Origin: Mangrovibacterium sp.
Lineage (GTDB): Bacteria; Bacteroidota; Bacteroidia; Bacteroidales; Prolixibacteraceae
Direction of reading: 5' to 3'
Assembly: GCA_047971925.1 (NCBI GenBank)
Contig: JBKEAC010000085.1
Coordinates: forward strand, 10,794 to 74,793
Length of the DNA: 64,000 nt
Part shown: positions 10,210 to 61,433 of the stretch, piece by piece
Numbering within the stretch: the first letter of the stretch is position 1
How the letters are laid out: every line of letters begins with the position of its first letter
The notes under the pieces: generated by a model
What the model saw: only the letters and a program-made list of their open reading frames with translations
The model's database searches: none
Told to the model about the DNA's origin: nothing
Program-made: the position numbers and the translations under genes

Positions 10210-11418
10210 ATGAATAATAAACTTACTGCACTCACTCTTTGCACTTGTCTTTTTGCTACATCTTCTTGGGCTAAAAATGACAACAAGAAACAAAATGAAG
10301 GTGGATACATCTTCTCAACTACAAAGGAAATACCCCACACATCGGTAAAAGATCAAAACCGATCGGGCACTTGCTGGTCATTCTCAACACTCAGCTTCAT
10401 TGAATCGGAAATGCTACGAGCAGGAAAACCGGAAACCGATCTTTCTGAAATGTTTGTCGTGCGACACGTTTATAAAGACAAATCAGAAAAATATGTACGC
10501 CTACATGGCAATCTAAACTATAGCGCAGGTGCTGGCTCACGCGACGTGCCATATATCATCGAAAAATATGGCATTGTTCCCGAAGGAGTTTATGGCGGAC
10601 TATCATATGGAGAAGACAAACACGTGCACGGCGAAATGGATGAAATGCTACTTGCCCAAGTGGGTGCTGTGATTAAAAACAAAAATCGAAAACTTTCACC
10701 AGCTTGGACTACCGCCATCGATGGAACTCTTGATGCATACTTAGGCGAGCTTCCCGAAGAATTCGAATATCATGGAAAAAAATATAGCCCTCAATCGTTT
10801 GCTTCCGATTTCGTTGGGCTCAACATGAACGACTATATTGAAATTACATCATTCACACACCAACCATTCTACAAATCATTCGCCTTAGCCATTCCCGACA
10901 ATTGGCTATGGGGCGAAAGCTACAATGTGCCAATGAATGAAATGATTGCAATAATCGACAATGCCATTGCCAATGACTACACTATTGCTTGGGGGGCTGA
11001 TGTAAGTGAAAAAGGATTTGTTACCAAAAATCAAGGTGTAGCTGTTGTGCCTGAAGTAAACACACAAGAAATGAGCAATGCCGAAATTGCAAAATGGGAA
11101 AACATGTCGACAAACGAAAAAGATGCCGAACTTTACAAACTCGATAAACCAGGAAAAGAAAAAACCATCACACAAGAAATGCGCCAACAAGCCTACGACA
11201 ACTATGAAACAACCGATGATCACGGCATGGAAATTATAGGCACAGCCAAAGATCAAAATGGAACCCCCTATTACATTGTAAAAAACTCTTGGGGCGAATA
11301 CAATAAATACAAAGGCTATTTCTATGCCTCAATTCCTTTTGTGCAATACAAAACAATGAGCATCATGGTAAATAAAAACGCCATTCCTAGCGAAATACGC
11401 CAAAAACTTGGAATCTAA
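10210..11418 (+). CDS. pepC: C1-family cysteine aminopeptidase (aminopeptidase C / bleomycin hydrolase-like) with signal peptide
   Basis: 402 aa. Catalytic Cys motif QNRSGTCWSFS, a downstream H/N region (HGMEIIG..VKNSWG), and an N-terminal hydrophobic signal LTLCTCLFATSSWA. Confidence 0.85.
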   Translation: MNNKLTALTLCTCLFATSSWAKNDNKKQNEGGYIFSTTKEIPHTSVKDQNRSGTCWSFSTLSFIESEMLRAGKPETDLSEMFVVRHVYKDKSEKYVRLHGNLNYSAGAGSRDVPYIIEKYGIVPEGVYGGLSYGEDKHVHGEMDEMLLAQVGAVIKNKNRKLSPAWTTAIDGTLDAYLGELPEEFEYHGKKYSPQSFASDFVGLNMNDYIEITSFTHQPFYKSFALAIPDNWLWGESYNVPMNEMIAIIDNAIANDYTIAWGADVSEKGFVTKNQGVAVVPEVNTQEMSNAEIAKWENMSTNEKDAELYKLDKPGKEKTITQEMRQQAYDNYETTDDHGMEIIGTAKDQNGTPYYIVKNSWGEYNKYKGYFYASIPFVQYKTMSIMVNKNAIPSEIRQKLGI

Positions 11419-11939: not shown

Positions 11940-11984
11940 TTTTCGTAATTTATTGTTTCACAATGCAATATTATTCATCAAAAG

Positions 11985-12056
11985 TGACCCCAATGAGACT
12001 CGAACTCATATCGTCAGAACCGGAATCTGATATTCTATCCATTGAACTATGGAGCC
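11985..12056 (-). tRNA. tRNA-Arg (anticodon CCG)
   Basis: Hand-folded cloverleaf on the minus strand: acceptor GGCTCCA/TGGGGTC, D arm GTTC-AATGGATA-GAAT, anticodon arm TCAGA-TTCCGGT-TCTGA (CCG), T arm ATGAG-TTCGAGT-CTCAT, discriminator A. Length 72 nt, no encoded CCA. Confidence 0.85.
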
Positions 12057-12209: not shown

Positions 12210-12336
12210 CTTTGGGGGTGCCGGCATCTCTCCTCGCCACTTGCCCACGCCCTGCCGTCGCGCTTTCCGCTACAATCTTTTCCCGCCTTAGGTCGGGAAA
12301 AGGATTTTCGCTGCAATCGCTCACCCAGCTTCGCCA
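12210..12336 (-). ncRNA. Candidate structured RNA, copy A (unclassified family)
   Basis: Conspicuously GC-rich island in AT-rich intergenic DNA. It is homologous to copy B (12921-13055) in inverted orientation. The conserved blocks are GGGUGAG, AAAUCCUUUU..AAAAGAUUG, CGGAAAGC.CGACGGCAGGGC, UGGGCA, UGGCG.GGAG and AUGCCGGCACCCCC. The internal hairpin has a different sequence from copy B. On the minus strand a U-run (TAGTTTTTTT) follows about 10 nt after the 3' end. Confidence 0.5.
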
Positions 12337-12912: not shown

Positions 12913-12920
12913 TAGTTTTG
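12913..12920 (+). promoter_or_regulatory. Bacteroidota -7 promoter box (TAGTTTTG) upstream of RNA copy B
   Basis: Exact TAnnTTTG match ending a few nt before the conserved RNA block starts (CAGCCGGGUGAGG). A TTTG lies upstream, although the spacing is shorter than consensus. Confidence 0.4.
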
Positions 12921-13055
12921 CACAGCCGGGTGAGGTATTGGCGTGGAAATCCTTTTAAGTGGGCTTTGCCTTTTGCCCACTTAAAAGATTGGAACGGAAA
13001 GCCCGACGGCAGGGCTGGGCATTGTGGCGGGGAGGAATGCCGGCACCCCCAAAAG
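12921..13055 (+). ncRNA. Candidate structured RNA, copy B (unclassified family)
   Basis: GC-rich island with predicted closing helix GGGUG/CACCC, helix AAUCCUUUU/AAAAGAUU capped by an 8-bp hairpin AAGUGGGC-loop-GCCCACUU, hairpin GCCC-GACGGCA-GGGC and hairpin GGCAU..AUGCC. Homologous to copy A. Confidence 0.5.
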
Positions 13056-23123: not shown

Positions 23124-24776
23124 TTAGGATAACAACTCCTGCGCTGCCTTTCGAGCCGTTTCCGAAGCACTCTCTCCTGCCAACATCAATGCCAATTCAT
23201 CTATTCGTTCATTTTCACTCAACTGACGAATTGACGTAAATGTCTGCTCATTATCATCATATTTATATACTTTAAAATGATACTCTCCCTTTCCTGCAAT
23301 CTGCGGAAGATGAGTAATATTAAGAATTTGCACATGGGCAGATAATTCTTTTAAAACATCTCCCATTTTAACAGCAACTTCACCTGATATTCCTGTATCT
23401 ATTTCATCAAAAACAATTGTTGGTAATGACTTATTACTAGCTATAAGCGACTTAATAGCCAACATTACACGTGAAATTTCACCTCCTGAGGCAACTTTTG
23501 AAACATCTTGCAACGTTCCATTCTTATTGCCAGCAAAAGTAAAAAGTAAATCATCAATCCCAGTATTAGAAATAGAATCTAATTTCTTAAACTGAAGTTT
23601 AAATACCGCATTTGGCATTCCCAAACGATATAACACTTCTTCTATTGATTGTTCTATAATAGGTGCAGCTGTAATTCTCCTTTCACTCAATTCTCCGGCA
23701 CAAAGATGCAATTCTGCCAACAAACCATCTACCAGCAAACGGTGTTGTTCGATATCTTCATCAAATGTTCCTATCTGTGCGATCTTCTTCTCAAAATCAT
23801 GCTGTAAGATAAGTAACTCAGAAACAGAATCAACTTTAAACTTTTGCTGCAAAGAATAAAACAAATCAAGGCGTTCTGCAATCTCATTCACTCGAGTTGA
23901 ATTATATTCTACACCATCTGCTAAGACATCACATTCATCATTTATATCTTTCATCTCCAAATAAACCGACTCCAATCTAGAAGCTAATTCATCAGCTCTA
24001 CCAACCACGCTACTCATCTTTTTGAATCGAGACAAATGCTCCTTTAGTCTTGCCAACACGCCTAAATCATCTTGTTGCATTTCTGAAGAAAATCCGCCAA
24101 ATATTGACTTAATATCTTCTGCATGCTCTAAAGTCGATTGCTCCTGTTCCAATACCTCTTGCTCACCTTCTTTCAATTTTGCACTTTCTAATTGAGCATA
24201 TTGAAACTGTAGATAATCAAAATCGCTTTTTGACTGTTCTGCTTGATAAATAAGCTCAAGCAATATTTTATTTTGCTTTTGATAATTCCGATAACAATCA
24301 GAATATTTCTCTAAACATTTTGCATTTCCTGCAACAAGATCAACCAAATTTAATTGAAAAGAATTATCGCCCAATGATAAATTCTGATGCTGCGAGTGAA
24401 TATCAATCAGCTGTGAAGAAATTTCTTGCAGCACTTTTAATGTAACTGGTGTATCATTAATAAAAGCCCTTGATTTTCCACTTGCACTAATCTCTCGCCT
24501 CAAGATGGTTTGTTCTTCATAATCAATATCATTTTGCTGGAAAAGCGACATCAAATTAAGATTGCTAATTTTGAAGATAGCTTCAACTGTGCATTTCTGC
24601 TCCTCATTTCGCAAAACCGACAAATCAGCACGCTGACCCATAATTAGCCCCAAAGCACCAAGTATTATCGATTTCCCAGCCCCTGTCTCTCCAGTGATGA
24701 TGTTAAATCCCTGAAAATATTTTATATGCAACTTATCAATGAGTGCATAGTTTGATATATGTAATTCTAGAAGCAC
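23124..24776 (-). CDS. recN: DNA repair protein RecN
   Basis: 550 aa with an N-terminal Walker A (GETGAGKSI), a long coiled-coil middle and a C-terminal signature/Walker B (SGGE.SRVMLA..VFDEIDTGISG). Confidence 0.92.
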   Translation of the reverse strand: MLLELHISNYALIDKLHIKYFQGFNIITGETGAGKSIILGALGLIMGQRADLSVLRNEEQKCTVEAIFKISNLNLMSLFQQNDIDYEEQTILRREISASGKSRAFINDTPVTLKVLQEISSQLIDIHSQHQNLSLGDNSFQLNLVDLVAGNAKCLEKYSDCYRNYQKQNKILLELIYQAEQSKSDFDYLQFQYAQLESAKLKEGEQEVLEQEQSTLEHAEDIKSIFGGFSSEMQQDDLGVLARLKEHLSRFKKMSSVVGRADELASRLESVYLEMKDINDECDVLADGVEYNSTRVNEIAERLDLFYSLQQKFKVDSVSELLILQHDFEKKIAQIGTFDEDIEQHRLLVDGLLAELHLCAGELSERRITAAPIIEQSIEEVLYRLGMPNAVFKLQFKKLDSISNTGIDDLLFTFAGNKNGTLQDVSKVASGGEISRVMLAIKSLIASNKSLPTIVFDEIDTGISGEVAVKMGDVLKELSAHVQILNITHLPQIAGKGEYHFKVYKYDDNEQTFTSIRQLSENERIDELALMLAGESASETARKAAQELLS

Positions 24777-24793
24777 AACTATTAATTTAATTT

Positions 24794-25699
24794 TTAAAAT
24801 GCATTATGTTCCTTCAGTGCCTGATAATTTGCACTATTTGCAGGGTCCATCTCAACCAATGCTGCAACAACTCGATTCAACTCTTCGATTGGTGCAGCCG
24901 AGAAAATATTAAGCAGCTCGCTCGTTTTAGCATCAAAAAAAACAGTAAACAAATATAAACTTGGTCGTGTGCGATATAATTTCACCAAACTCACAACTGA
25001 ATTGGCAACTACTGAACGACCATTTGCAAAAGATTTCTCCATCTCATCTAGTCCTTTGCGATGATAATCATATAACAACTGACGAAATGCTGAATACGAT
25101 CTATTATTCAAATTTTCAGCAAGCCAATATCTATTCGTTTCATTTTCATACGACTTCCATCCTCCATAAGATGAACCTTGGGCATTATTTACAATCTGCA
25201 TAGCTTTCTGAAAATAAATCGAACCAGCATTAGGTGAAAATGAATCAGCATCCATACCTAAAATAACATAGGCATAAAAAGCCATAATGCTCGTGAGATT
25301 ATCCACATTTGATGATTCATTATAAACTAACGGTTCAAATTCTGAATACACCACATGAAAATCTTTATCCTTAATATTCAACAATGGACTTTCATAACTC
25401 GCATTATAAATCGGGCGACGAAGTTGCACATTAACCGAGCCTTTAAATTCATTAGTTGAAACTTGCTCTTCCAACTGAATGACCATATTACACTCGATTA
25501 ATTCCGTTTTTTCATAACGATCTTCCGTCCATTTCCTTTCATTCATGAACTGCGTTAAAGCTGTCTGCATGGCCTTAAAGGTATTCTGATTTGCTTCTCT
25601 AATCTTATTATAATTCACTGTAACATTACAGCGAAGTTCTTGAGCATTCAAACTACTTGCACCTAAAATCAATGCTATTATAAATACAATTCTATTCAT
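24794..25699 (-). CDS. DUF4835-family secreted protein
   Basis: 301 aa with a signal peptide. It occupies the conserved Bacteroidota position between coaBC and recN. The family name is recalled from that synteny and has not been searched. Confidence 0.55.
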   Translation of the reverse strand: MNRIVFIIALILGASSLNAQELRCNVTVNYNKIREANQNTFKAMQTALTQFMNERKWTEDRYEKTELIECNMVIQLEEQVSTNEFKGSVNVQLRRPIYNASYESPLLNIKDKDFHVVYSEFEPLVYNESSNVDNLTSIMAFYAYVILGMDADSFSPNAGSIYFQKAMQIVNNAQGSSYGGWKSYENETNRYWLAENLNNRSYSAFRQLLYDYHRKGLDEMEKSFANGRSVVANSVVSLVKLYRTRPSLYLFTVFFDAKTSELLNIFSAAPIEELNRVVAALVEMDPANSANYQALKEHNAF

Positions 25700-25717
25700 T
25701 GAAAATATACTTTGTTT

Positions 25718-26935
25718 TTATGAATGATGAAACATGCGAATTGATATCTCTTGAATAATATCTTTCGCAACTTCCGCTTTCGTCTTCAATGGAAAACTTT
25801 TAATTTCTCCGACGGCATCAATAATAGATATCTTATTAGTATCTACCCCAAATCCAGCACCGAAATCATTAAGCGAATTTAAAACAATTAAATCTAAGTT
25901 TTTACGTCGCAACTTTACTTCCGCATTCTTAAATTCATCTTGAGTTTCAAGGGCAAAACCTATTAGCAACTGGTTTTCACGTTTCTGTTTCCCAAGAGAA
26001 GCCGCAATGTCATCATTTGCCACTAATTCTATCGAAAAATCATGCTGATTCTCACGCTTAATTTTTTGCTCTGCTCTTGTTTTAGGACGATAATCAGCAA
26101 CAGCAGCACTCATAATAGCGGCATCGCACAAGGGGAAAATCCGTTCCGCCTCCATCTTCATTTCCTCAGCAGATTCCACTAAAATCAATTCAATCGAATG
26201 TGCCGATTTTAACTTAACACTCACCGGACCACTAAGCAAGGTAACACGTGCCCCTTGTTCTGCCAATGCTTCTGCCAATGCATAGCCCATTTTCCCCGAT
26301 GAATAGTTCCCAATAAATCGAACAGGATCAATTCGCTCGTAAGTTGGACCAGCAGTAACTAGAATATGCTTATTTAGAAGTTTTTTTTTTGAATTAAAAT
26401 GCTCCACAACAGCATCTACAATATGTTCTGGCTCTGCCATTCGCCCTTTACCATGCAAGCCACTAGCTAAAACGCCATCACCTGGTTCAATAATAATATT
26501 ACCATATGATTTAAGCAACTGCATATTTTGGTTAGTTGATGGATGCTGAAACATATCTAAATCCATGGCAGGAGCAAGCATCACATCATTTTTTGCAGAA
26601 AGATAGGTTGTAACTAGTAGGTTATCGGCAATGCCATGTGCCATTTTCCCAATTGTTGCAGCTGTAACGGGAGCAATTAAAGTCAAATCCGCCCATTGCC
26701 CCATGTCAACATGCGAATGCCATGTACCATCATTTGCCGTAAAAAAATCCGACGCAACTGGTCTTCCCGACAATGCACTCATTGTAACAGGCGTAATGAA
26801 CTGCTTTGCAGCTGGAGTCATCACCACTTGCACTTGTGCACCTTCTTTTATTAATAACCGCAAAAGCATAGCTGCCTTATAAGCAGCTATGCTTCCTGTT
26901 ATTCCTAAAACAATATTTTTGCCCTCTAATCTCAT
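25718..26935 (-). CDS. coaBC: Bifunctional phosphopantothenoylcysteine decarboxylase / phosphopantothenate--cysteine ligase
   Basis: 405 aa with an N-terminal flavoprotein domain (GITGSIAAYK, PAMD..M) and a C-terminal CoaB domain (TAGPT.E.IDPVR.I.N.SSGKMG). Confidence 0.92.
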   Translation of the reverse strand: MRLEGKNIVLGITGSIAAYKAAMLLRLLIKEGAQVQVVMTPAAKQFITPVTMSALSGRPVASDFFTANDGTWHSHVDMGQWADLTLIAPVTAATIGKMAHGIADNLLVTTYLSAKNDVMLAPAMDLDMFQHPSTNQNMQLLKSYGNIIIEPGDGVLASGLHGKGRMAEPEHIVDAVVEHFNSKKKLLNKHILVTAGPTYERIDPVRFIGNYSSGKMGYALAEALAEQGARVTLLSGPVSVKLKSAHSIELILVESAEEMKMEAERIFPLCDAAIMSAAVADYRPKTRAEQKIKRENQHDFSIELVANDDIAASLGKQKRENQLLIGFALETQDEFKNAEVKLRRKNLDLIVLNSLNDFGAGFGVDTNKISIIDAVGEIKSFPLKTKAEVAKDIIQEISIRMFHHS

Positions 26936-26955
26936 GGAAGGTATTTGAATTTATA

Positions 26956-27276
26956 CTATTCCTTTGTTGGGTTTCTGTGATAAATATTATGATGTTTCAG
27001 TTCTTCACACGCAATTAAAGTCGGCTTTGGCAAACGCTCATAATACTTTGAAATTTCAATCTGCTCACGATTCTCAAAAACTTCTTCTAAGTTATCATTA
27101 TACGATGCAAATTCTTGAAGCTTCTGATTTAATTCCTCTTTCATTTCTGATGAAATCTGATTTGCTCGTTTAGCAAGAATCATCACTGTTTCATAGATAT
27201 TTCCTGTTTCGCTTTCTAAATCATCTAAATTTCTTGGCACTGTAGTACCCTCTGCTTTTACTTTCTTGAAATCCAT
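26956..27276 (-). CDS. rpoZ: DNA-directed RNA polymerase subunit omega
   Basis: 106 aa with an omega core helix NIYETVMILAKRANQI, in the conserved position between coaBC and bamD. Confidence 0.7.
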   Translation of the reverse strand: MDFKKVKAEGTTVPRNLDDLESETGNIYETVMILAKRANQISSEMKEELNQKLQEFASYNDNLEEVFENREQIEISKYYERLPKPTLIACEELKHHNIYHRNPTKE

Positions 27277-27288
27277 TCGGTTATATAA

Positions 27289-28101
27289 TTAAATCTCGTT
27301 GTTATAATCTAATCTTGTAGATAACTCTGCATAATATTTGTCGGCAGCTTTTCTATGCTTACTTTCTGGATACTCATCCACAAAGGTAAAATACTCATCC
27401 AAAGCAGAACTCAAGCGCTCTTCCTGCAATTCTTCAACACTTCGAACACCTAAATTATATTTCGACCGCAAAAGCATAAATTTCAACTCCTCACGATAAC
27501 TACTATTAGGAAATTCTTTCAGTGAATTTTGCAATGCTATTGTCGAAGCCTTGTAGTTTTCTAAATCATAATACAACTTAGCTGTTAAAAATGACTTATA
27601 CACCAACTTATCATGTAACTCGTCAATTTTCTCATTAGCTTCTGATACCTTATCACTCGCAGGAAATAAATTTACATACAGCTGATAAGCATCTATCGCC
27701 TTTTTAGTTACGGTCTGATCTAATCGTATGCTTGGCGATTCATCGTAATAACATCTCGCAACCATGTACTGCGCATCTTTACGATAGTTACTTCTTGGAT
27801 ACTCTGTAACCAAAGTTCGATACCAATGACCAGCTAAAAGATAATCACCAGACTCATAATAACTCTGAGCATAGTTATAATAAATCTCATCTGCCTTACT
27901 CGTACCACGATAAACCGTTACTAGCTCGCGAAACAATTCACAAGCACGAACATATTCTCCTTCGGCATAATATTCTTTTGCCTTTTTATATTTATATTCG
28001 AAATCAGAACTTTTTAAGACTTTCTGATATTCGCCACAGCCTGTTGTAATTAATAAAAACAACAACGCCATTATTGTTATTACATGAGTTTTTCTAAGCA
28101 T
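27289..28101 (-). CDS. bamD: Outer membrane protein assembly factor BamD (TPR lipoprotein)
   Basis: The ORF track extends to 28146. The start at 28101 gives MLRKTHVITIMALLFLLITTGC, a lipoprotein signal with lipobox Cys. TPR-like repeats follow (YYAEGEYVRA, YESGDYLLA, YYDLENYKAS). Confidence 0.8.
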   Translation of the reverse strand: MLRKTHVITIMALLFLLITTGCGEYQKVLKSSDFEYKYKKAKEYYAEGEYVRACELFRELVTVYRGTSKADEIYYNYAQSYYESGDYLLAGHWYRTLVTEYPRSNYRKDAQYMVARCYYDESPSIRLDQTVTKKAIDAYQLYVNLFPASDKVSEANEKIDELHDKLVYKSFLTAKLYYDLENYKASTIALQNSLKEFPNSSYREELKFMLLRSKYNLGVRSVEELQEERLSSALDEYFTFVDEYPESKHRKAADKYYAELSTRLDYNNEI

Positions 28102-28464
28102 TTTGCAAAGATAAGTCTTTGATTGAAATATGAAATACAATTTCATGTTTTTATGCTATTTTCATCTAATAATTGCACATATCTTAAATTCCATACCTTA
28201 ATGTGACTATTATTAAGAAAAAAAAAAAACAAATCAAACTCACTCTCCAAAATAAACATTAGTGCCTACAAAACAATTTTATATGGAAAAAATATTCCTA
28301 ACTCAAGATGCTTATCTGTGAGACGCTCGGTATATCCTCACTCTATTCTCATTGTTATTCTCATCGGAAATATCGTAATAAATTCAATTACAAAAACTTA
28401 TTTGTCGCAATTTTGAATCATAATCTTATTAAGCACACTAAACTTCATCTCAAGAAAAAATATT

Positions 28465-29175
28465 TGAGGAATTAAATCAGTGCATTTTTAAATCCGTTAA
28501 AGATTGATTGAGTTTAAAACGAACAAACATCGTTACTTAAACACGTCTAACAACAATATAAATTGAAGCTTAATTCTATTCATAAAAAAAAACCTACATC
28601 ATTAAGCTTACTTAATACATCTCTTGAAAAAAAATATCACCCAATAAGTTTGCTTATTTTAACATATCAAAAAAAATATGGACAAATAAGCATGCTTAAT
28701 TCATCTCTTGAAAAAAAATACCACCCAATAAGTTTGCTTATTTTAACATATCAAAATAAATATGGACAAATAAGCTTGCTTAATTCATCTCTTGAAAAAA
28801 AATATCACCCAATAAGTTTGCTTATTTTAACATATCGAAATAAATATGGACAAATAAGCTTGCTTAATCCACCTCATGAAAAAAAATATGGACAAATAAA
28901 TTCTTATATAGCTCATGATTGAGAACGTTTATAGTCCTTTGACCATGCCTTTTGATGATGATTGATTGGCAATCAGAATGCATCGTGTCGTTCATTTTGT
29001 TTTATGAGGGCATCTTTTGTCCTAATTTCATAAAAAGACGTATTGCAATGCAACTCTACCATTAGGATGAAATCTACCCTCATAAAATCATAATGACCTA
29101 ACAGCTAATTTTTAGAAATCCCCCTAAAAAAAAAATCACCCTATTTTAAAAGTTGATTTACCGACAATTCGCAAC
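28465..29175 (+). repeat. Modular non-coding repeat element, copy 1 (left module + 42-bp unit array + right module)
   Basis: The roughly 115-bp left module (GGAATTAAATC.GTGCATTTTTAAATCCG...ATAAATTGAAGCTTAA) is, by eye, about 80 percent identical to 52945-53060. The right module is more weakly similar to 53370-53585. Confidence 0.85.
28582..28905 (+). repeat. Tandem array of about eight 42-bp units (three near-identical 84-bp double units)
   Basis: Each unit has a short variable part, an A8-9 tract, TAT, (CACCCAA or GGACAAA), then a palindrome AATAAGTTTGCTTATT or TAAGC(AT/TT)GCTTA. A-tract starts recur every about 42 bp. Confidence 0.9.
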
Positions 29176-29203: not shown

Positions 29204-29211
29204 TAACTTTG
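29204..29211 (+). promoter_or_regulatory. Bacteroidota -7 promoter box (TAACTTTG) for the 29.2-33.9 kb operon
   Basis: Exact TAnnTTTG match about 30 bp after the end of repeat element copy 1 and 25 nt before the GTG at 29236. Confidence 0.4.
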
Positions 29212-37615: not shown

Positions 37616-39866
37616 ACCCGCGACCTTCTTAAAACACCTTTTTATTCATTTTTAATTTTGTCCATGAATCAAGTTTACAACCTAAGTAAAAAGCTTCTTC
37701 TATATTATGCATTGTCATTTATCTTTTCTTTCACCATTCTGCACAACGCATTGGCGCAAACAAAAGTAAATGCCGATTCGTTGTTTTTAGTTGCTCGACA
37801 GTATTCTTTTGATGGCAAATACAATAAAGCTTTGCAAATTTCCGACTTAATTTTAAGTCAGAATCCCAACTATTTTGATGTTTCGTTGCTAAAAAGTCGC
37901 ATTTATTCATGGCAAGGAGATTACACAACTGCTGAAAAAATAGCCTCTGAGGTTTTAACTCTTGACCCGAAGAATTATGATGCTTATGATGCGCTATCGA
38001 ATATCTATCTATGGAACAATCAATCGGAAGAATGCATCTTAACAATCAACAGAGCTTTATATTTCTTTGAAGATGATATCAACCTCTTAATAAAAAAAAC
38101 AAAAGCCTTACTCCTTCTTCAAAACTTTGAAGAGGCGCAAGAAACTCTTGATATTTTATCAGAATTAGACCCACAAAATCCTGAAATTAAAAAACTCAAA
38201 GATAGAATTACAGTAGAAGCAACAAGCAATACTTCTACTGTCAATTTAGATTCTCTCTTCGCTGTTGCCAATAACTATGCTGCGAAAAAAGAGTACACTA
38301 AAGCTCGAAATACTGCTTCTGAGGTATTGGCAATCTATCCTCAATATACCGATGCGCAGCTTCTAATTGCTAGAACTCAAGCTTGGGAAGGAAATTATGT
38401 GTCTGCACAAAAAGAAGTGAGCGATGTACTAAGTAAAGATGCTAAAAACTACGATGCGATCTCATTACAAAGCGATATATATTTCTGGAATGGAAAGTAT
38501 AATCAATGTATTCTGTTCATCACTCAGGCTCAATCCATCTATCCGAAAGATATTTCTTTACTAACTAAAAAATTTAAAGCACAAGTTGCACTCAACGATA
38601 ATGAGAGTGCTAATGAAACTTTAAAATTGCTAGAAGTTCTAGATCCAGAAAACAAAAGTGTGAAGGCTGAAAAAAACACAAAGTAAGCCCTATCAAGTAA
38701 ACTCGGATCCGATAGCTAAGTAATTTGACTTTTTTGTCTAAGCAAACTCAGCATCGACTAAAAAGATGCTGTGCTAAACTCGCTGCCCTCTCAAAACACC
38801 TTTTTATTCATTTTTTTATTTTGTCCATGAATCAAGTTTACAATTTAAGTAAAAAGCTTCTTCTATTTTATGCATTGTCATTTATCTTTTCTTTCGCTAT
38901 TCCACACAACGCATTGGCGCAAACAAAAGTCAATGCCGATTCGTTGTTTTTAGTTGCTCGACAGTATTCTTTTGATGGCAAATACAATAAAGCTTTGCAA
39001 ATTTCCGACTTGATTTTAAGTCAGAATCCCAATTATTTTGATGTTTCGTTGCTAAAAAGTCGCATTTATTCATGGCAAGGAGATTACACAACTGCTGAAA
39101 AAATAGCTTCTGATGTTTTAACTCTTGACCCAAAGAATTATGATGCTTATGATGCGCTATCGAATATCTATCTATGGAACAATCAATCGGAAGAATGCAT
39201 CTTAACAATCAACAGAGCTTTATATTTCTTTGAAGATGATATCAATCTTTTAATAAAAAAAACAAAAGCCTTACTCCCCTTAAAAAACTACGATGAGGCG
39301 CAAGAAACAATTAATCGGTTATTAGAATTAGACCCACAAAATCCAGCTATTAAAAAACTCCAAGATAGAATTAACTTAGAAGCATCTGGCAATGCAACTA
39401 CTATCAATTTAGATTCTCTCTTCAGCGTTGCTAATAGCTATGCTATGAAAAAAGAGTATACTAAAGCTCGAAATACAGCCTCAGAGGTATTAGCAATCTA
39501 TCCTAAATATACCGATGCACAGCTGCTAATTGCTAGAACTCAAGCTTGGGAAGGAGATTATGCATCTGCACAAAAAGAAGTGAGCGATGTGCTAAGTAAA
39601 GATGCTAAAAACTATGACGCAATCTCATTACAGAGCGATATTTACTTCTGGAATGGAGAATATGACCAGTGCATTCTGTTCATCACTCAGGCTCAATCCA
39701 TCTATCCGAAAGATATTTCTTTACTAACTAAAAAATTTAAAGCACAAGTTGCACTCAACGATAATGAGAGTGCCAATGAAACTTTAAAAATGTTAGAGGT
39801 TCTAGATCCTGAAAACAGTGTATTGAAGGATGAAAAAGAAAAGATAGCACTAAGCAAGCCCTATAA
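37591..39866 (+). repeat. Tandem duplication, period about 1163 bp (copy 1 37591-38693, copy 2 38754-39866)
   Basis: The last about 25 bp of the receiver gene, the intergenic region, the signal peptide and the whole TPR region are repeated. Both ends of the unit are nearly identical between copies, while the middle third is visibly more diverged. Confidence 0.9.
37664..38686 (+). CDS. Secreted tetratricopeptide-repeat protein (barrel-less paralogue of the downstream gene)
   Basis: ATG at 37664 (the ORF track TTG is at 37658), with a signal peptide ending ALAQ and multiple TPR units. The stop codon falls at a position that is internal in the paralogue. Confidence 0.75.
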   Translation: MNQVYNLSKKLLLYYALSFIFSFTILHNALAQTKVNADSLFLVARQYSFDGKYNKALQISDLILSQNPNYFDVSLLKSRIYSWQGDYTTAEKIASEVLTLDPKNYDAYDALSNIYLWNNQSEECILTINRALYFFEDDINLLIKKTKALLLLQNFEEAQETLDILSELDPQNPEIKKLKDRITVEATSNTSTVNLDSLFAVANNYAAKKEYTKARNTASEVLAIYPQYTDAQLLIARTQAWEGNYVSAQKEVSDVLSKDAKNYDAISLQSDIYFWNGKYNQCILFITQAQSIYPKDISLLTKKFKAQVALNDNESANETLKLLEVLDPENKSVKAEKNTK

Positions 39867-40620
39867 AAATATTATCAAAGTTGAATATAACTACGAAACC
39901 TTCAAGAAACCATGGGAAAGAATGTGGAGCATGACTGGTTTGTCATATGGCAGACGCACATCGAAATATGGCGACTATTATGCCAATATTTTCATGGGTG
40001 ATTTGATTTTACCTGGTGAAAAATTTGGTTCCGATTTAGGCCTACAATTCGAGCTCGAATGCTACCCAAAGATTGACAACAATAACACTTTTTTCTTTGC
40101 CTACGCCTATTCGCCTAGCCCAATTTTTGCTACCCATCGATTAGGTGTTGAATATTATCGAAGTTTTCCAAACATTATTGATGCTTCATTAGGATATCGC
40201 TTCATGAATTTCTCGACAGATGTTGAAGAAATAGTTAATGTTAATGTACTTACCACATCAATTTCAAAATATCTTGGTAATTATTGGCTCTCTTTTCGCC
40301 CCTATGCCGTTTTTGTGAGTAATGTCGATAAGGTTAATTCTTCATATCAAATCATAGGTCGAAAATATCTTGCACGCCCTGAAAGTTTTATCGGATTAAC
40401 ATTAGGGTATGGTGTAAGTTCTCCCGATGACAGCTTTTTTCAGAACAATGCAGGAACAGCGCCTCTTTATAAAACCTACACTACACAAGCACAATTCAAA
40501 TACAAACTTTCCTCTTTACTAATCATTGATTCTTATTTAGGCTATGAAAATGCAGAATATAAACCCAATTCACATCGTGGGCAAATAAATTTTAGAATTG
40601 CAATTCAATGCTTACTTTAA
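38827..40620 (+). CDS. TPR + C-terminal outer-membrane beta-barrel protein (YaiO-like; PgaA/BcsC-type export porin architecture)
   Basis: ATG at 38827. The ORF-track extension from 38725 is the duplicated 3' end of the receiver gene. The N-terminal about 330 aa are TPR. The C-terminal about 260 aa show amphipathic beta-strands (LGVEYYRSF, SLGYRFMNF, YWLSFRPYAVFV, IGLTLGYGV, QAQFKYKL, IDSYLGYENAEY, INFRIAI). Confidence 0.7.
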   Translation: MNQVYNLSKKLLLFYALSFIFSFAIPHNALAQTKVNADSLFLVARQYSFDGKYNKALQISDLILSQNPNYFDVSLLKSRIYSWQGDYTTAEKIASDVLTLDPKNYDAYDALSNIYLWNNQSEECILTINRALYFFEDDINLLIKKTKALLPLKNYDEAQETINRLLELDPQNPAIKKLQDRINLEASGNATTINLDSLFSVANSYAMKKEYTKARNTASEVLAIYPKYTDAQLLIARTQAWEGDYASAQKEVSDVLSKDAKNYDAISLQSDIYFWNGEYDQCILFITQAQSIYPKDISLLTKKFKAQVALNDNESANETLKMLEVLDPENSVLKDEKEKIALSKPYKNIIKVEYNYETFKKPWERMWSMTGLSYGRRTSKYGDYYANIFMGDLILPGEKFGSDLGLQFELECYPKIDNNNTFFFAYAYSPSPIFATHRLGVEYYRSFPNIIDASLGYRFMNFSTDVEEIVNVNVLTTSISKYLGNYWLSFRPYAVFVSNVDKVNSSYQIIGRKYLARPESFIGLTLGYGVSSPDDSFFQNNAGTAPLYKTYTTQAQFKYKLSSLLIIDSYLGYENAEYKPNSHRGQINFRIAIQCLL

Positions 40621-51702: not shown

Positions 51703-52602
51703 ATGAAACCAACTTTATTAATTTTAGCAGCAGGAATGGGCAGCCGATATGGCGGTTTAAAGCAAATTGACCCATTTGGACCAAACGGAGAAGCAATTAT
51801 TGAATATTCCGTGTTCGATGCAATTCGTGCTGGATTTGGAAAAGTAGTTTTTGTCATTCGTGAAAGCTTTGCCGATGAATTTAAAGCAAAATTCAATGGT
51901 AAATTAGAAGGAAAAATCGAAGTAGAATATGTCTATCAAGAACTCAACAAACTACCCGAAGGCTATACATGCCCTGAAGGTCGTGAAAAACCTTGGGGTA
52001 CTGGGCATGCAATTCTAATGGCAAAAGAAGCTATTAAAGAACCTTTTGCATCAATCAATGCCGATGATTTCTACGGAAAAGAAGCCTTTGAAGTAATGGC
52101 TAAATTCCTTGCAAACGATTGCAATGAAGAGCAATATAGCATGATGGGATATTCTCTTAAAAACACACTCTCTGAATATGGTTCGGTGAGCCGTGGAATT
52201 TGCGAAAGCGATGCTAAAAACAACCTCACTGTAATCGTTGAGCGCCATGACATTCGCCGTGAAGCCGATGGCATTGTGTGCGACAATGGTCAAGGTGAAA
52301 AAATTAAGCTAGAAGAAAACTCTCCTGCGTCGATGAACTATTGGGGATTCCATCCTAGCCTATTCAATAAGTTAGAAAAATTATTTAAACAGTTCCTCGA
52401 TACAAACATCAACACTCCAAAATCAGAATTTTACATTCCTAACGTGGTGTTCGATTTAATTAAGAGCAAAGAAGCTGCAACTAAGGTGCTAGAAGCCGAT
52501 TCTCCATGGTTTGGTGTAACATTCCCCGACGACAAGCCATTTGTGGTTGGAAAAATTAAAGACTTAACCGATAAAGGCATATATCCACCTAAATTGTGGT
52601 AA
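51703..52602 (+). CDS. Sugar-phosphate nucleotidyltransferase
   Basis: 299 aa with the N-terminal LAAGMGSRYGGLKQ signature of the NTP-transferase fold. Confidence 0.7.
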   Translation: MKPTLLILAAGMGSRYGGLKQIDPFGPNGEAIIEYSVFDAIRAGFGKVVFVIRESFADEFKAKFNGKLEGKIEVEYVYQELNKLPEGYTCPEGREKPWGTGHAILMAKEAIKEPFASINADDFYGKEAFEVMAKFLANDCNEEQYSMMGYSLKNTLSEYGSVSRGICESDAKNNLTVIVERHDIRREADGIVCDNGQGEKIKLEENSPASMNYWGFHPSLFNKLEKLFKQFLDTNINTPKSEFYIPNVVFDLIKSKEAATKVLEADSPWFGVTFPDDKPFVVGKIKDLTDKGIYPPKLW

Positions 52603-52663: not shown

Positions 52664-52934
52664 GGTCTATGTCGAATAGGATTGGTAAAAATAATTTGCC
52701 TCTTTAGTTGTTCCTAACTTAGAGAAGGATGTGATTGAAACACGCTTGCAATACACTTGCAACGCACTTACAACAGTCTTCTATCATTTAATCGAAGCTC
52801 GCCACATGCTATTCGTTTTTCAACGGAACGCCCATTTGGTCATTGTTGCATTGCCTTGTAGAATTAACCAAGCAAGCATAATTCGACAATTCACCTACCC
52901 ACTAAATTCAACATATAGCCTTTTTTAAAAAAAC

Positions 52935-53585
52935 TAACCCGTTGGCGGAATTAAATCGATGCATTTTTAATCCGATAAATAATAATTGAGTTTTAAAGGA
53001 ACAAAAATCGTTGCTAAAACACTTCTTATTACATTATAAATTGAAGCTTAACTTAGCTCATGGGGAAAAATGTCGGCAATTAAGTTGACTTAAAGCACCA
53101 CATTAAAAAGTTTATCAACAATTAAGTTGGCTTAAAGCATTACATCAAAAAAATTATCAACAATTAAGTTGGCTTAAAGCACCATTTCAAAAAAAATATG
53201 AACTAATAAGTTTGCTTAAAGCACCATTTCAAAAAGTTTATCGATAATTAAGTTGGCTTAAAGCACCTCATCAAAAAAAATATGGACTAATAAGTTTGCT
53301 TAATTTTGCATTTCAAAAAAAAAATGGACCAATAAGCTTTTTTTTAAACCGTAGTGTTCTAACAAATATAGTCATTGAGCACGTCGGTTGACGATGATTA
53401 AATGATAGATTCAGAAGATATTACACAATCTTCCTGATGGTGATGCATTGCTATGTATCTTTAACAGCCTCCTCAATTTAATAATTAATTTTAAGAAGTT
53501 CCCAAAATACCAATGAAACACGAAAACGCATAACTCATTCTTCTTTAAAATTGCAAATAATTAATTCCGCCGACAAGTTAACTAC
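52935..53585 (+). repeat. Modular non-coding repeat element, copy 2, with about 20-bp terminal inverted repeats
   Basis: The left end TAACCCGTTGGCGGAATTAA matches the reverse complement of the right end, TAACTTGTCGGCGGAATTAA. The left module is homologous to copy 1. Confidence 0.85.
53055..53346 (+). repeat. Tandem array of seven 42-bp units
   Basis: Unit consensus is GCACCATTTC-A(5-9)-(G)TTTATCAACAA or TATGGACTAA-TAAGTTTGCTTAAA. The units are more diverged from each other than in copy 1. Confidence 0.9.
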
Positions 53586-53633
53586 AAAATCTCTACACGT
53601 TTTTTTTCATTTTCATTGAAGTAAATCTTATTT

Positions 53634-55559
53634 TTGCATTCTAATATTCAACTAAAACAACAATCTCTTTTTAAAAAATCTATTTGCAAGAAAATAAACC
53701 CAATCATTTTGAAATCATTCCCCTTCTACATATGGTTTTTTCTACTACTCTTTCCATTCTGTGGAAGCAGTCAGAGTTTATTGCAAGACACCCTTCCCTC
53801 TGCCACAAAATACAACAATATATTTTCCGATAGCGCACTTGTAAGAATCAGAAGTAAAAAATTCACGCGCATTATTTACGAAGGAATAGCTGCAGAACGT
53901 GGCGATCCGAATGTTAGAGAAAAAGCTCGTCAAAATCAGTATGCTAATCTTTATCGTTTACAAGGAAAAACAATTGGGAAAATCAGAATTAATCGACTTG
54001 ATGCATTCGGACCAACCTTGGAAGACACCGCTTTTGTACACCCTAGTTCATTTGTGAAATGGGCAAACAAAATGCATGCCAAATCGAGTGCCGGCACCAT
54101 TGAAAAAAATATTTTTTTAAAAAGTGGCGATGAACTCAATTCGGAAATCGTGCTAGAAAACGAACGCTTAATTCGCCAAATGGAATACATTCGCGATGCA
54201 CGCATACTCGCCGAACTTGATTCTAATGACACCACAAAAGTGAACTTGGTTGTAATTACCAAAGACGTCTTCTCCTATGGAGCCGAAATGCAATTAAAAG
54301 GACTCGAGGATGGCTTTTTCTCTATCTTTAATCAAAATATCTGGGGAATTGGTCACCAATTAGGCGGAGGCATTGTGTGGAACACCCAAGCCAATGATGG
54401 TTTGGGAATAAGAAGTTCCTACACTGCCCGAAATATCAAGGGAACATACACCGACGCCACCGTGGGATTCATTAACAGCTATCGACAAAAAGGAATGGTA
54501 ATTGATGTGCAACGCCCATTTGCCAAAACAAACACCCATTGGGCTGGTGGAACTGAATTTTATAAAATGTGGCGTACAAATTCTTATTATGAAACCGAAA
54601 TTGTTACATCCGACACCATACGCTCTCCAGTTAACTACACCGCCTATGACCTCTGGAGTGGATACGCATTCAAATTAGGAAATAAACAAATTTCAAGCAG
54701 CCCCTATTTAGTGCTCGCTGCCCGATATCGGAATGTCGATTTTATCTCTCGTCCAAAAGCTGGCGAAGATGGCAAACAATATTTTGCTGATTCCAAACTG
54801 TACATGCTTAGCCTCAGTCTTTCCAAACGACAATACATTCGCGATAACCACATTTATAGCTATGGTATCACCGAAGACATTCCCAAAGGTTTCCTACACG
54901 AATTTGTGTTTGGTCATGACGATAACGAATTCAACCAACGTCTTTATGGTCACCTATTTATTTCGAGTGGAAATCTCATCCAAATGAAACCAACTTATCT
55001 CTATTTATCGGCAGGATTTGGAAGTTTTTTCAACAAAACAGGGATTGAACAAGGTGAATTGCAATTAAATTTCAACCTCATTTCTCGACAATTTAAAATA
55101 GGCAATCAAATTGCCCGACAATTCATTTCTGCCAAATATGTGCATGGCTACAATCGTTTTAACCAAGAATACTTAGAACTCGACGATAACGATGGCATTA
55201 GAGGATTTGAAAGCAATCTTACTTTTGGCAAAAAAAAGTTCTATATTAACACCGAAACTCTCTATTTTTTAAACAAAAAATTCTGGGGATTCAACATGGC
55301 ATTTTTTAATTTTTTCGACATTGGAGTGCTTGCTCATCAAGACGAAAGTATTTTTAAAGGAAGGTGGTATTCTGGATTTGGTGCTGGCATTCGCTTCAAA
55401 AACGAGAGCTTAGTGTTCGATACAATTCAATTGCGCTTTGCTTTCTATCCTGGATCTCCATCTGACCAAACTTTATTTGGTGTTCAAGGCGGATATCTAC
55501 GCCGAGAAATACCCTATGACTTCCAAGCTCGTAAACCAATCAACTTAGAATATCGCTAA
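53634..55559 (+). CDS. Putative outer-membrane protein (Omp85/BamA-like beta-barrel; tentative)
   Basis: 641-aa ORF. The start is uncertain: the TTG at 53634 overlaps a TATTTTTG -7-like box, and the in-frame TTG at 53709 gives MKSFPFYIWFFLLLFPF. The C-terminal half has a beta-strand pattern and Gly/aromatic-rich segments (WYSGFGAGIRF). Confidence 0.5.
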   Translation: MHSNIQLKQQSLFKKSICKKINPIILKSFPFYIWFFLLLFPFCGSSQSLLQDTLPSATKYNNIFSDSALVRIRSKKFTRIIYEGIAAERGDPNVREKARQNQYANLYRLQGKTIGKIRINRLDAFGPTLEDTAFVHPSSFVKWANKMHAKSSAGTIEKNIFLKSGDELNSEIVLENERLIRQMEYIRDARILAELDSNDTTKVNLVVITKDVFSYGAEMQLKGLEDGFFSIFNQNIWGIGHQLGGGIVWNTQANDGLGIRSSYTARNIKGTYTDATVGFINSYRQKGMVIDVQRPFAKTNTHWAGGTEFYKMWRTNSYYETEIVTSDTIRSPVNYTAYDLWSGYAFKLGNKQISSSPYLVLAARYRNVDFISRPKAGEDGKQYFADSKLYMLSLSLSKRQYIRDNHIYSYGITEDIPKGFLHEFVFGHDDNEFNQRLYGHLFISSGNLIQMKPTYLYLSAGFGSFFNKTGIEQGELQLNFNLISRQFKIGNQIARQFISAKYVHGYNRFNQEYLELDDNDGIRGFESNLTFGKKKFYINTETLYFLNKKFWGFNMAFFNFFDIGVLAHQDESIFKGRWYSGFGAGIRFKNESLVFDTIQLRFAFYPGSPSDQTLFGVQGGYLRREIPYDFQARKPINLEYR

Positions 55560-58072: not shown

Positions 58073-58176
58073 GCAATTAAAAAAACAACATCTCTAGACT
58101 TGAAGGTACTTTATTTACACAAAAAATTCCTTATTTTGTGCTGCATAATTTAAGAAGTCGCAAAAAAACAAATCAG

Positions 58177-61027: not shown

Positions 61028-61100
61028 GACTCAGTAGCTCAGCCGGTAGAGCACATCCCTTTTAAGGATGGGGTCCTGGGTTCGAATCCCAGCTGAGTCA
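61028..61100 (+). tRNA. tRNA-Lys (anticodon UUU), copy 1
   Basis: Acceptor GACTCAG/CTGAGTC, D loop AGCTCAGCCGGTAGAGC, anticodon arm CATCC-CTTTTAA-GGATG, T arm CTGGGTTCGAATCCCAG. Length 73 nt. Confidence 0.92.
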
Positions 61101-61163
61101 CTATTTTTAGTGTATTTAGCATTAGAAATATAGTCTTTATTTAGAAGACAAATAAACCGTGGA

Positions 61164-61236
61164 GACTCAGTAGCTCAGCCGGTAGAGCACATCCCTTTTA
61201 AGGATGGGGTCCTGGGTTCGAATCCCAGCTGAGTCA
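61164..61236 (+). tRNA. tRNA-Lys (anticodon UUU), copy 2
   Basis: Sequence identical to copy 1. Confidence 0.92.
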
Positions 61237-61305
61237 CACAAAATGCGAGTTCAAAATTCGTATCTTATCGACATACTTTCATTAAAGGAAGTATAATTCC
61301 ACGGA

Positions 61306-61378
61306 GACTCAGTAGCTCAGCCGGTAGAGCACATCCCTTTTAAGGATGGGGTCCTGGGTTCGAATCCCAGCTGAGTCA
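61306..61378 (+). tRNA. tRNA-Lys (anticodon UUU), copy 3
   Basis: Sequence identical to copy 1. Confidence 0.92.
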
Positions 61379-61433
61379 CCAAGAAAACTTTTTACAATTA
61401 TTTTGTGAAAAGTTTTTTTTTCATTCATACATT

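Follow-up and report, generated by a model that had tools for sequence, protein, structure and literature searches.

Introduction

Elements that combine the features of miniature inverted-repeat transposable elements (MITEs) with an internal minisatellite are so far known mainly from Porphyromonas gingivalis. One of them, MITEPgRS (MITE464; Naito et al. 2008), carries terminal repeats along with a 41-nt unit that is repeated in tandem up to 14 times (PMC2575886; PMC4596501). A second, BrickBuilt (Klein et al. 2015), combines a leader with repeats of 23 nt and a tail, has small terminal repeats, and occurs as 19 intergenic copies per genome (PMC4596501). Many BrickBuilt copies are without one or both ends, their target duplications are unclear, they have no Rfam match, and they exhibit promoter activity in both directions (PMC4596501). 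In this study we describe two intergenic loci in a 64,000-nucleotide stretch of contig JBKEAC010000085.1 from Mangrovibacterium sp. (Bacteroidales, Prolixibacteraceae; assembly GCA_047971925.1), hereafter called the window. Each locus contains a conserved left module followed by an array of 42-bp units. With modest confidence we read them as two copies of a non-autonomous, MITE-like repeat element that is probably transposon-derived.

The window element has several features in common with both P. gingivalis families. Set against the published description of MITEPgRS, it is likewise a non-coding element of the Bacteroidales that has terminal inverted repeats (significant in copy 2 here), an internal array of variable copy number and some incomplete copies, the unit being 41 nt there and 42 bp here. 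However, the terminal repeats of MITEPgRS are of the IS5 type (GAGACTGTTGCA) while those of the window element are GGCGGAATTAAATC; MITEPgRS has A/B direct-repeat-like sequences just inside both ends where the window element has a distinct leader and tail; and MITEPgRS is present in 20 copies per genome as compared to two copies seen in 64 kb here. With BrickBuilt the window element shares a leader, a spacer-less minisatellite, a distinct tail, terminal inverted repeats and an intergenic location tens to hundreds of nt from the flanking genes, as well as a very narrow host range, incomplete copies, unclear target duplications and no Rfam match. It differs from BrickBuilt in that the latter has 23-nt units and IS5-like terminal repeats, and in that promoter activity was measured there but is inferred here. 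Compared with the terminal repeats given in Table 2 of PMC4596501, the ends in the window (TAACCCGTTGGCGGAATTAAATC) are not of the IS5 type (GAGACC...TGCA). Because the architecture is the same but the ends differ (GGCGGAATTAAATC versus the IS5-type GAGACC...), the element appears to constitute a separate, new family of the BrickBuilt/MITEPgRS kind, a kind that is already known from P. gingivalis, and not a member of either family.

More distant parallels exist as well. A preliminary description of this DNA had likened the element to the pneumococcal BOX elements, and as far as architecture goes the comparison stands, as both have a conserved left module and a variable number of subunits (~45 bp in BOX) and both are intergenic and non-coding. 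A closer relation to BOX is not indicated, as no conserved boxC-like right module was found (similarity between the two right modules is not significant, as 45 of 300 shuffles score equally well) and as BrickBuilt and MITEPgRS are closer precedents. Additionally, BOX belongs to another phylum, the window element is far longer (~650-710 bp), and complementarity between leader and tail is limited here to the 36-nt ends of copy 2. The BIME/REP mosaics of E. coli and the ERIC, Correia and RUP repeats are similar in that they too are intergenic mosaics of short repeat families, and a hairpin-type repeat at 28976-29133, discussed below, is comparable to them in size and shape. Unlike BIME/REP mosaics, the 42-bp units are in direct and not in alternating orientation, and no GTAG/RAYT signature was noticed, although no search aimed at it was made.

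These observations suggest that the ~700-bp intergenic blocks are repeat mosaics and not missed genes or RNAs, and that they account for breaks in short-read assemblies of the same organism. A second, unrelated family of this kind in the Prolixibacteraceae, located upstream of BamA/TamA-like and secreted phosphatase promoters, suggests that the architecture is more widely spread in the Bacteroidota. By gaining or losing units, such elements may also repeatedly give rise to variation close to promoters.

Results and discussion

Two homologous intergenic elements with 42-bp minisatellites

A sensitive blastn comparison of the 64-kb window against itself aligned 28463-28861 with 52942-53339 at 73% identity over ~400 bp (E 2e-73) and found no third copy. 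The two left modules are ~73% identical (105/144 aligned bases), and each is followed by a minisatellite that Tandem Repeats Finder reports with a 42-bp period: 6.5 copies at 28627-28899 in copy 1, and 5.4-6.1 copies with ~80% matches at 53077-53336 in copy 2. The copy 1 array is also reported as an 84-bp double unit (28603-28889; 3.4 copies, 94% matches). When the units are placed in register (Table 1), the leader is conserved and the repeats are spacer-less, while the number of units differs between the copies, with eight in copy 1 and seven in copy 2, one of them degenerate in each case. Within the units the half-sites TAAG and CTTA are invariant in 13 of the 14, the 4-nt spacer between them is variable, and an A-tract lies upstream. 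A pattern made of three successive unit palindromes matches nine times in the window and not once in 100 shuffles. These results bear out most of what the preliminary description had said of the general layout, namely an element of ~710 bp with a second copy in the same orientation, a conserved left module of ~115 bp, about eight 42-bp units with an A-tract and a palindrome, a recent expansion of 84-bp double units, and a modular order of left module, array and right part.

The right-hand parts of the two copies are a different matter. Their last ~250 bp are not significantly alike, since 45 of 300 shuffles score equally well, with two exceptions. The first is a stretch of ~50 bp directly after the array, in which local alignment places 28929-28978 collinear with 53366-53416 (a weak match, but correctly positioned). 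The second comprises the last ~50 bp of both copies, which align marginally (17/500 shuffles). Beyond the left ends, no significant homology is seen (50/500 shuffles). What justifies treating the two loci as one element is solely the 5' ~400 bp together with the termini.

Two other readings were rejected. The genes downstream of copies 1 and 2 are unrelated to each other, so paralogy of these genes is not the source of the similarity and the element is not a duplicated promoter region. The arrays are also not CRISPR arrays, as the entire 42-bp unit repeats and there are no unique spacers.

Table 1. Coordinates of the two copies and of associated features in the window
Feature	Position	Strand	Remarks
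Copy 1, whole element	28463-29172	+	710 bp; between bamD (27289-28146, minus strand) and the phosphatase gene (29236)
Copy 1 left module (leader)	28463-28578	+	Homology with copy 2 begins here; left terminal sequence GGAATTAAATCAG at 28468-28480
Copy 1 minisatellite	28579-28914	+	7 full and 1 degenerate 42-bp units, arranged as 84-bp double units
-7-like TAAGTTTG in three copy 1 units	28645, 28729, 28813	+	TTG 18 nt upstream of each
Copy 1 post-array segment	28915-28975	+	28929-28978 collinear with 53366-53416
Separate hairpin-type (palindromic) dispersed repeat, nested in or abutting copy 1	28976-29133	.	Contains TTTTATGAGGG / CCCTCATAAAA
Copy 1 right end	29134-29172	+	Degraded terminal repeat GATTTACC (29155-29162; reverse complement GGTAAATC), then CGACAATTCGC
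Native -7 box TAACTTTG of the alkaline-phosphatase-family gene (start 29236), outside the element	29204-29211	+	
Copy 2, whole element	52935-53580	+	646 bp; between a nucleotidyl-transferase gene (51703-52602) and a BamA/TamA-family gene (53709)
Copy 2 left terminal inverted repeat	52935-52970	+	Perfect core GGCGGAATTAA
Copy 2 left module (leader)	52942-53056	+	From the alignment to copy 1
Copy 2 minisatellite	53057-53350	+	6 full and 1 degenerate units; TAAGTTTG at 53207, 53291
Copy 2 tail	53351-53544	+	53366-53416 collinear with copy 1; 53460-53503 hairpin-repeat-like fragment, reverse-oriented
Copy 2 right terminal inverted repeat	53545-53580	-	Pairs with 52935-52970
Native -7 box TATTTTTG of the BamA/TamA-family outer-membrane protein gene (annotated start 53709), outside the element	53629-53636	+	

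Termini of the element and its possible mobility

Copy 2 is bounded by terminal inverted repeats. Its arms (52935-52970 and 53545-53580) are 36 nt in length and 78% complementary, with an 11-bp perfect core (GGCGGAATTAA), and the left arm is located exactly where homology with copy 1 starts. The score of this inverted repeat is 16, whereas shuffles give 10.7 +/- 1.1 and none of 60 attains 16. Copy 1 has remnants of such ends, consisting of GGAATTAAATCA on the left and, read as its reverse complement, GGTAAATCA on the right. The latter matches both the left end and the core of the terminal repeat of an element in a related genome (L029, described below).

In short-read assemblies of the same organism there are breaks at 28653, ~52729 and 53503, which fits repeated sequence. 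Two simple repeats lie close by: an 11-bp tandem repeat (TTGCAACACAC x3.7) is present at 52735-52775, 160 bp upstream of copy 2 and near the contig end at ~52729, and a run of 13 A residues (28219-28231) is located upstream of bamD.

Since copy 2 places a significant inverted repeat right in front of a gene for an outer-membrane protein, and since phase-variable invertible promoters (invertons) are common in the Bacteroidota, copy 2 might also be an inverton. In that case the 36-nt repeats of copy 2 would be recombinase sites around a 574-bp segment, the inversion of which would allow internal motifs to switch the outer-membrane protein gene on or off, and the internal -7-like motifs do point toward this gene. 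We nevertheless consider an inverton very unlikely. There is no recombinase gene nearby, the gene's own conserved -7 box lies outside the repeats, and copy 1 does not have the inverted repeats. Furthermore, the assembly breaks at 52729 and 53503 do not fall at the repeat cores, and the one at 53503 coincides with a fragment of a dispersed repeat.

A MITE-like element is also consistent with the gene arrangement in related genomes, where the element is absent from both orthologous sites. In the related metagenome-assembled genome GCA_047974225.1 (locus L026), recN is followed after 58 bp by the orthologous phosphatase gene, which has the same TAACTTTG box but no element. Comparison with this locus indicates that the conserved phosphatase promoter sequence starts at ~29180, a few bases past the end of copy 1. 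In another relative (L028) the gene for an efflux outer-membrane factor lies 68 bp upstream of the phosphatase orthologue, again with the element absent. For copy 2, the orthologous outer-membrane protein gene is preceded in L163/L164 by a 235-bp intergenic region that has no array. The suggestion in the preliminary description that the sequence is a non-autonomous mobile element therefore gains support, both from the 36-nt terminal inverted repeat of copy 2 and from these relatives.

Several observations weigh against this interpretation. In copy 1 no long-range terminal inverted repeat reaches significance, and no target-site duplication is recognizable by eye in the flanks of 52935/53580 or 28463/29172. 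There is no transposase gene in the 64-kb window, nor was an insertion sequence with matching ends identified, and the two copies that were seen both lie within this window. These relatives are not close (63-72% identity at the protein level) and show a rearranged gene order around both loci, so absence of the element from them is suggestive but not proof of insertion. For example, the bamD-rpoZ-coaBC-DUF4835-recN block (window 23124-28146, L029 4970-9942) is in opposite orientation relative to the phosphatase gene, which places copy 1 at a rearrangement junction. The signature of the left module, GGAATTAAATCNNTGCATTTTT, is absent from 185,579 species-representative genomes, with all 24 matches being unrelated gammaproteobacterial coding sequence that is conserved in Colwellia, Porticoccaceae and similar taxa. 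Viral contigs matched neither the unit pattern nor the left-module pattern, and a distant blastn search of plasmid and phage collections did not find the left module. Within the 1.2 Mb of loci that were fetched, a nhmmer profile of the two left modules matched a contig of the same organism (L001) and nothing else. Finally, the promoter-like motifs in the units, discussed below, are repeat-made copies of one or two events and are not statistically compelling.

If the two loci are indeed copies of a MITE-like element, then the ancestral layout would be a terminal inverted repeat, a leader of ~115 bp, an expandable 42-bp minisatellite, a tail and a second terminal inverted repeat. Such an element would have inserted, or become fixed, directly upstream of the core promoters that serve two envelope genes, after which its minisatellite would have grown and been homogenized locally by slippage or unequal exchange, giving rise to the double units of 84 bp seen in copy 1. 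This first copy would be the older, decayed one that later lost most of its terminal repeats and that acquired, or abuts, a second unrelated repeat of the hairpin type. Mobilization, whether present or past, would presumably have occurred in trans by a transposase encoded outside the window.

A second repeat family and the mosaic structure of both regions

The preliminary description had assigned an 11-bp perfect inverted repeat (29000-29010 and 29077-29087) to a right module of the element. The inverted repeat exists as described and extends to 27-nt arms with 81% complementarity. Its assignment to the element was not upheld, as the segment 28976-29133 that contains it is 76% identical over 153 bp to a sequence in GCA_047974225.1 (L161:10516-10665), where it is located upstream of a NigD-like gene. 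A nhmmer profile built from both sequences also matches L161:342-508 (E 3e-15). The segment forms a long imperfect hairpin (DNA fold z = -3.8). The repeat is ~160 bp in length and always intergenic, in the window at 28976-29133 and in L161 at 10505-10671 and 342-508. A 44-bp fragment that resembles it is present in reverse orientation in copy 2 (53460-53503), and 53503 is the exact position at which short-read contigs of the same organism begin. As judged from these alignments, the hairpin repeat is a second, independent repeat family of the clade, and both intergenic regions appear to be mosaics of at least two repeat families.

Relationship to promoters and possible regulatory roles

Both copies end directly upstream of the -33 region of native promoters. 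The distance from the end of copy 1 to the TAnnTTTG box TAACTTTG of the phosphatase gene (29204) is 31 nt, and that from the end of copy 2 to the box TATTTTTG (53629) is 48 nt, which agrees with the earlier statement that two copies in the same orientation end 30-50 bp before a -7 box. The -7 consensus of the Bacteroidota sigma-A factor is TAnnTTTG (PMC9723704). The motif TAAGTTTG matches this consensus and is found in five of the 14 units, always pointing toward the downstream gene, and each of its occurrences in copy 1 has a TTG 18 nt upstream. The native box downstream of copy 2 also appears to be conserved when read by eye, with window 53620-53640 (aaatcttatttttgcattc) corresponding to L161 4914-4933 (aaatcctatctttgcaatc), each ~72-73 nt before the gene start; this conservation rests on the reading by eye, as a MAFFT alignment put the relatives' box against a different stretch of the window.

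An effect of the element on transcription of the downstream genes is plausible, since it ends 31 and 48 nt before native -7 boxes and since its units carry rightward TAnnTTTG motifs. The element could supply additional promoters directed rightward, serve as an A/T-rich upstream element or offer protein sites in its palindromes, which would be candidate binding sites for a dimeric protein. That the half-sites are invariant while the 4-nt spacer varies is a pattern typical of protein sites and not of RNA stems.

These features could be taken a step further, in that the arrays may be a host regulatory cassette kept for control of envelope-gene promoters. Such a cassette would present either phased sites for a dimeric protein (TAAG-N4-CTTA plus an A-tract at every four helical turns) or tandem promoter modules of the sigma-A type, and it would be compatible with a transposon origin. 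Besides the invariant half-sites, this possibility is favored by the common orientation of the copies and their ends 31 and 48 nt before the -7 boxes of genes for secreted and outer-membrane proteins, by the fit of TAAGTTTG to the -7 consensus with TTG 18 nt upstream in copy 1, and by the finding that the BamA/TamA-like orthologue of a relative also has a 42-bp array upstream, though a different one. We consider it possible but unlikely, as no regulator gene is adjacent and there is no candidate binding protein, as orthologous genes in relatives have the same -7 boxes without the element, and as a perfect -7 motif is present in just five of the 14 units.

Predicted DNA curvature is also ordinary, which speaks against a regulatory cassette. 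The preliminary description had expected strong intrinsic curvature from A-tracts in phase with the helical repeat. Under a wedge model of the Bolshoy-Trifonov type, the ratio of end-to-end distance to contour length is 0.97 for array 1 and 0.91 for array 2, as compared to a window mean of 0.89 +/- 0.07, shuffles of 0.88-0.89 and a phased A6 positive control of 0.38. A crude model that considers only the A-tracts yields at most ~90-100 degrees over 270 bp. One A-tract per four helical turns is a weak source of bending, and strong curvature is not predicted.

Coding potential, RNA folds and replicon-like features

The view that the element is non-coding was confirmed. Neither copy has a Pfam match or an open reading frame (ORF) that is conserved between the copies; a 119-aa ORF that crosses array 1 is without a Pfam match and has no equivalent in copy 2. 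A search of Rfam gave no relevant match at either gathering or permissive thresholds.

Every unit is able to form a short hairpin, so the arrays could in principle specify a structured non-coding RNA or a long 5' leader of repeated hairpins with A-rich linkers that might act, for example, as a protein sponge. Array 1 does fold better than shuffles on the plus strand (z = -4.0). However, array 2 (z = -0.9) and both leaders (z-scores of -2.0 to +0.8) fold no better than shuffles, predicted structures differ between the copies, and no consistent RNA or DNA fold common to both leaders and arrays emerged. The stems consist of 4-6 A/T-rich pairs with no convincing compensatory changes, no Rfam family matches, and no terminator-like site is present in the element. 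An RNA function of this type therefore seems highly improbable.

The length of the unit and its single palindrome are also reminiscent of the sopC centromere of plasmid F, which is composed of 12 repeats of 43 bp with one inverted repeat per unit. By analogy, the arrays could be iterons or a centromere-like site of an integrated replicon. Unlike sopC, the window arrays are two dispersed copies without partition genes in a chromosomal housekeeping context. The genes that flank them in the window include bamD, rpoZ, coaBC, recN, the phosphatase gene and genes for sugar-nucleotide transferases, ABC transporters and DPP IV, and no rep, par, recombinase or integrase gene was found near either copy. 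In addition, the copies are 24 kb apart in the same orientation and have no match in plasmid or phage collections. We regard a replicon origin as scarcely credible.

Other 42-bp arrays in related genomes and metagenomes

A comparable element is present in GCA_047974225.1 (L029 3360-3818), where a 21-nt terminal inverted repeat that is 90% complementary (CAGGTAAATCGC...) surrounds six 42-bp units, so minisatellites with 42-bp units that are bounded by terminal inverted repeats do exist in the clade. This element is flanked by direct repeats of ~52 nt that are themselves 42-bp periodic. It is situated between mnmE and a DUF5106 gene (L029 3308-3885), and the source annotation has an 88-aa ORF across the array. 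The core of its ends (GGTAAATCG) resembles the window ends and a few words of 11-15 nt are common to both, but no match is individually significant. Homology between the two elements is thus confined to short words, all with E >= 1.

Among ~140 kb of sequence from the clade, there are six non-coding arrays whose period is 30 bp or more, and in five of them it is exactly 42 bp. These five are the two window arrays and those at L029 3386-3679, L161 4586-4772 and L027 5063-5147. The L161 array consists of double units of 84 bp and is situated upstream of the BamA/TamA-like orthologue, and the direct-repeat flank of the L029 element constitutes a fifth distinct 42-bp unit sequence. No similarity was detected between the unit sequences of different 42-bp array families. 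One speculative explanation is that the 42-bp period is itself functional, such that lineage-wide arrays of phased protein-binding sites or promoter modules are carried by MITE-like elements to the core promoters of envelope genes, with unit sequences that turn over quickly and a spacing that is fixed. It draws on the presence of at least five unrelated unit sequences in the clade, several with a short palindromic core, and we think it rather improbable. Nevertheless, the recurrence in related genomes of units of exactly 42 bp with unrelated sequences stands out as the single feature that might hint at something as yet not understood.

When metagenomes were scanned for three TAAG-N4-CTTA palindromes spaced 41-43 bp apart, at least 120 contigs were returned. 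The matches listed include several array families with the A-tract plus TTAAG-palindrome design in AT-rich as well as GC-richer genomes, and the left module was found in none of them by blastn or nhmmer. In viral contigs, TAAG..CTTA gave 8 loci, and control palindromes matched to it in composition gave 1, 17 and 5. Since the controls are about as frequent, the abundance of metagenome matches is not evidence for a special class.

Two of the metagenome families can be described further. The first has a 41-bp unit (GTTAAG-YGCA-CTTAAC plus CCAGAAAAAAAAGG) with conserved start and end modules and was observed at loci L035, L054, L056, L062, L101, L093, L114, L120, L125 and L136. It is always intergenic, occurs in genomes of ~41-49% GC, and is present as several arrays per genome, with three on one 970-kb contig. 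The second has a 42-bp unit (ATTAAG-ATTT-CTTAAT plus an A6 tract) and was observed in AT-rich genomes (loci L040, L078, L087, L094, L096 and L116). A right module of ~100 bp (ACGTAGCCACGCTTACAACCACGGCATAAAAC...) is conserved in this family in different genomic contexts and has no Rfam match at the gathering score. Possible compensatory changes flanking the palindrome were seen by eye in the 41-bp family, and an inspection by eye of the outer stems in one metagenome family gave an ambiguous picture.

Additional features of the window

The proteins encoded downstream of copies 1 and 2 are each 100% identical to an NCBI protein from a metagenome-assembled genome. The phosphatase-family gene downstream of copy 1 is represented at NCBI by a 505-aa protein that corresponds to a GTG start at 29320, and a look-up of other assemblies of this gene returned no record for the annotated 505-aa protein. 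Since homologues extend over all 533 aa from 29236, a length that includes an additional signal peptide, the start deposited at 29320 is probably too far downstream.

Several further repeats and RNA genes are present elsewhere in the window. Two matches to the Flavo-1 RNA above the gathering score, at 12252-12334 on the minus strand and 12920-13012 on the plus strand, are divergent and lie near a tRNA-Arg(CCG) gene (11984-12056). Three tRNA-Lys(UUU) genes form a tandem array with a period of ~140 bp (61028-61381). Four copies of a 177-bp tandem repeat with 93% matches (59493-60208) are located inside the gene for a 908-aa TPR-repeat protein (58138-60864). Two adjacent TPR-protein genes (37658-38686 and 38725-40620) appear to be paralogous, with similar Pfam profiles and a common 9-bp tandem repeat (TTATGATGC) at 37975 and 39138, and the second of these also encodes a YaiO beta-barrel domain.

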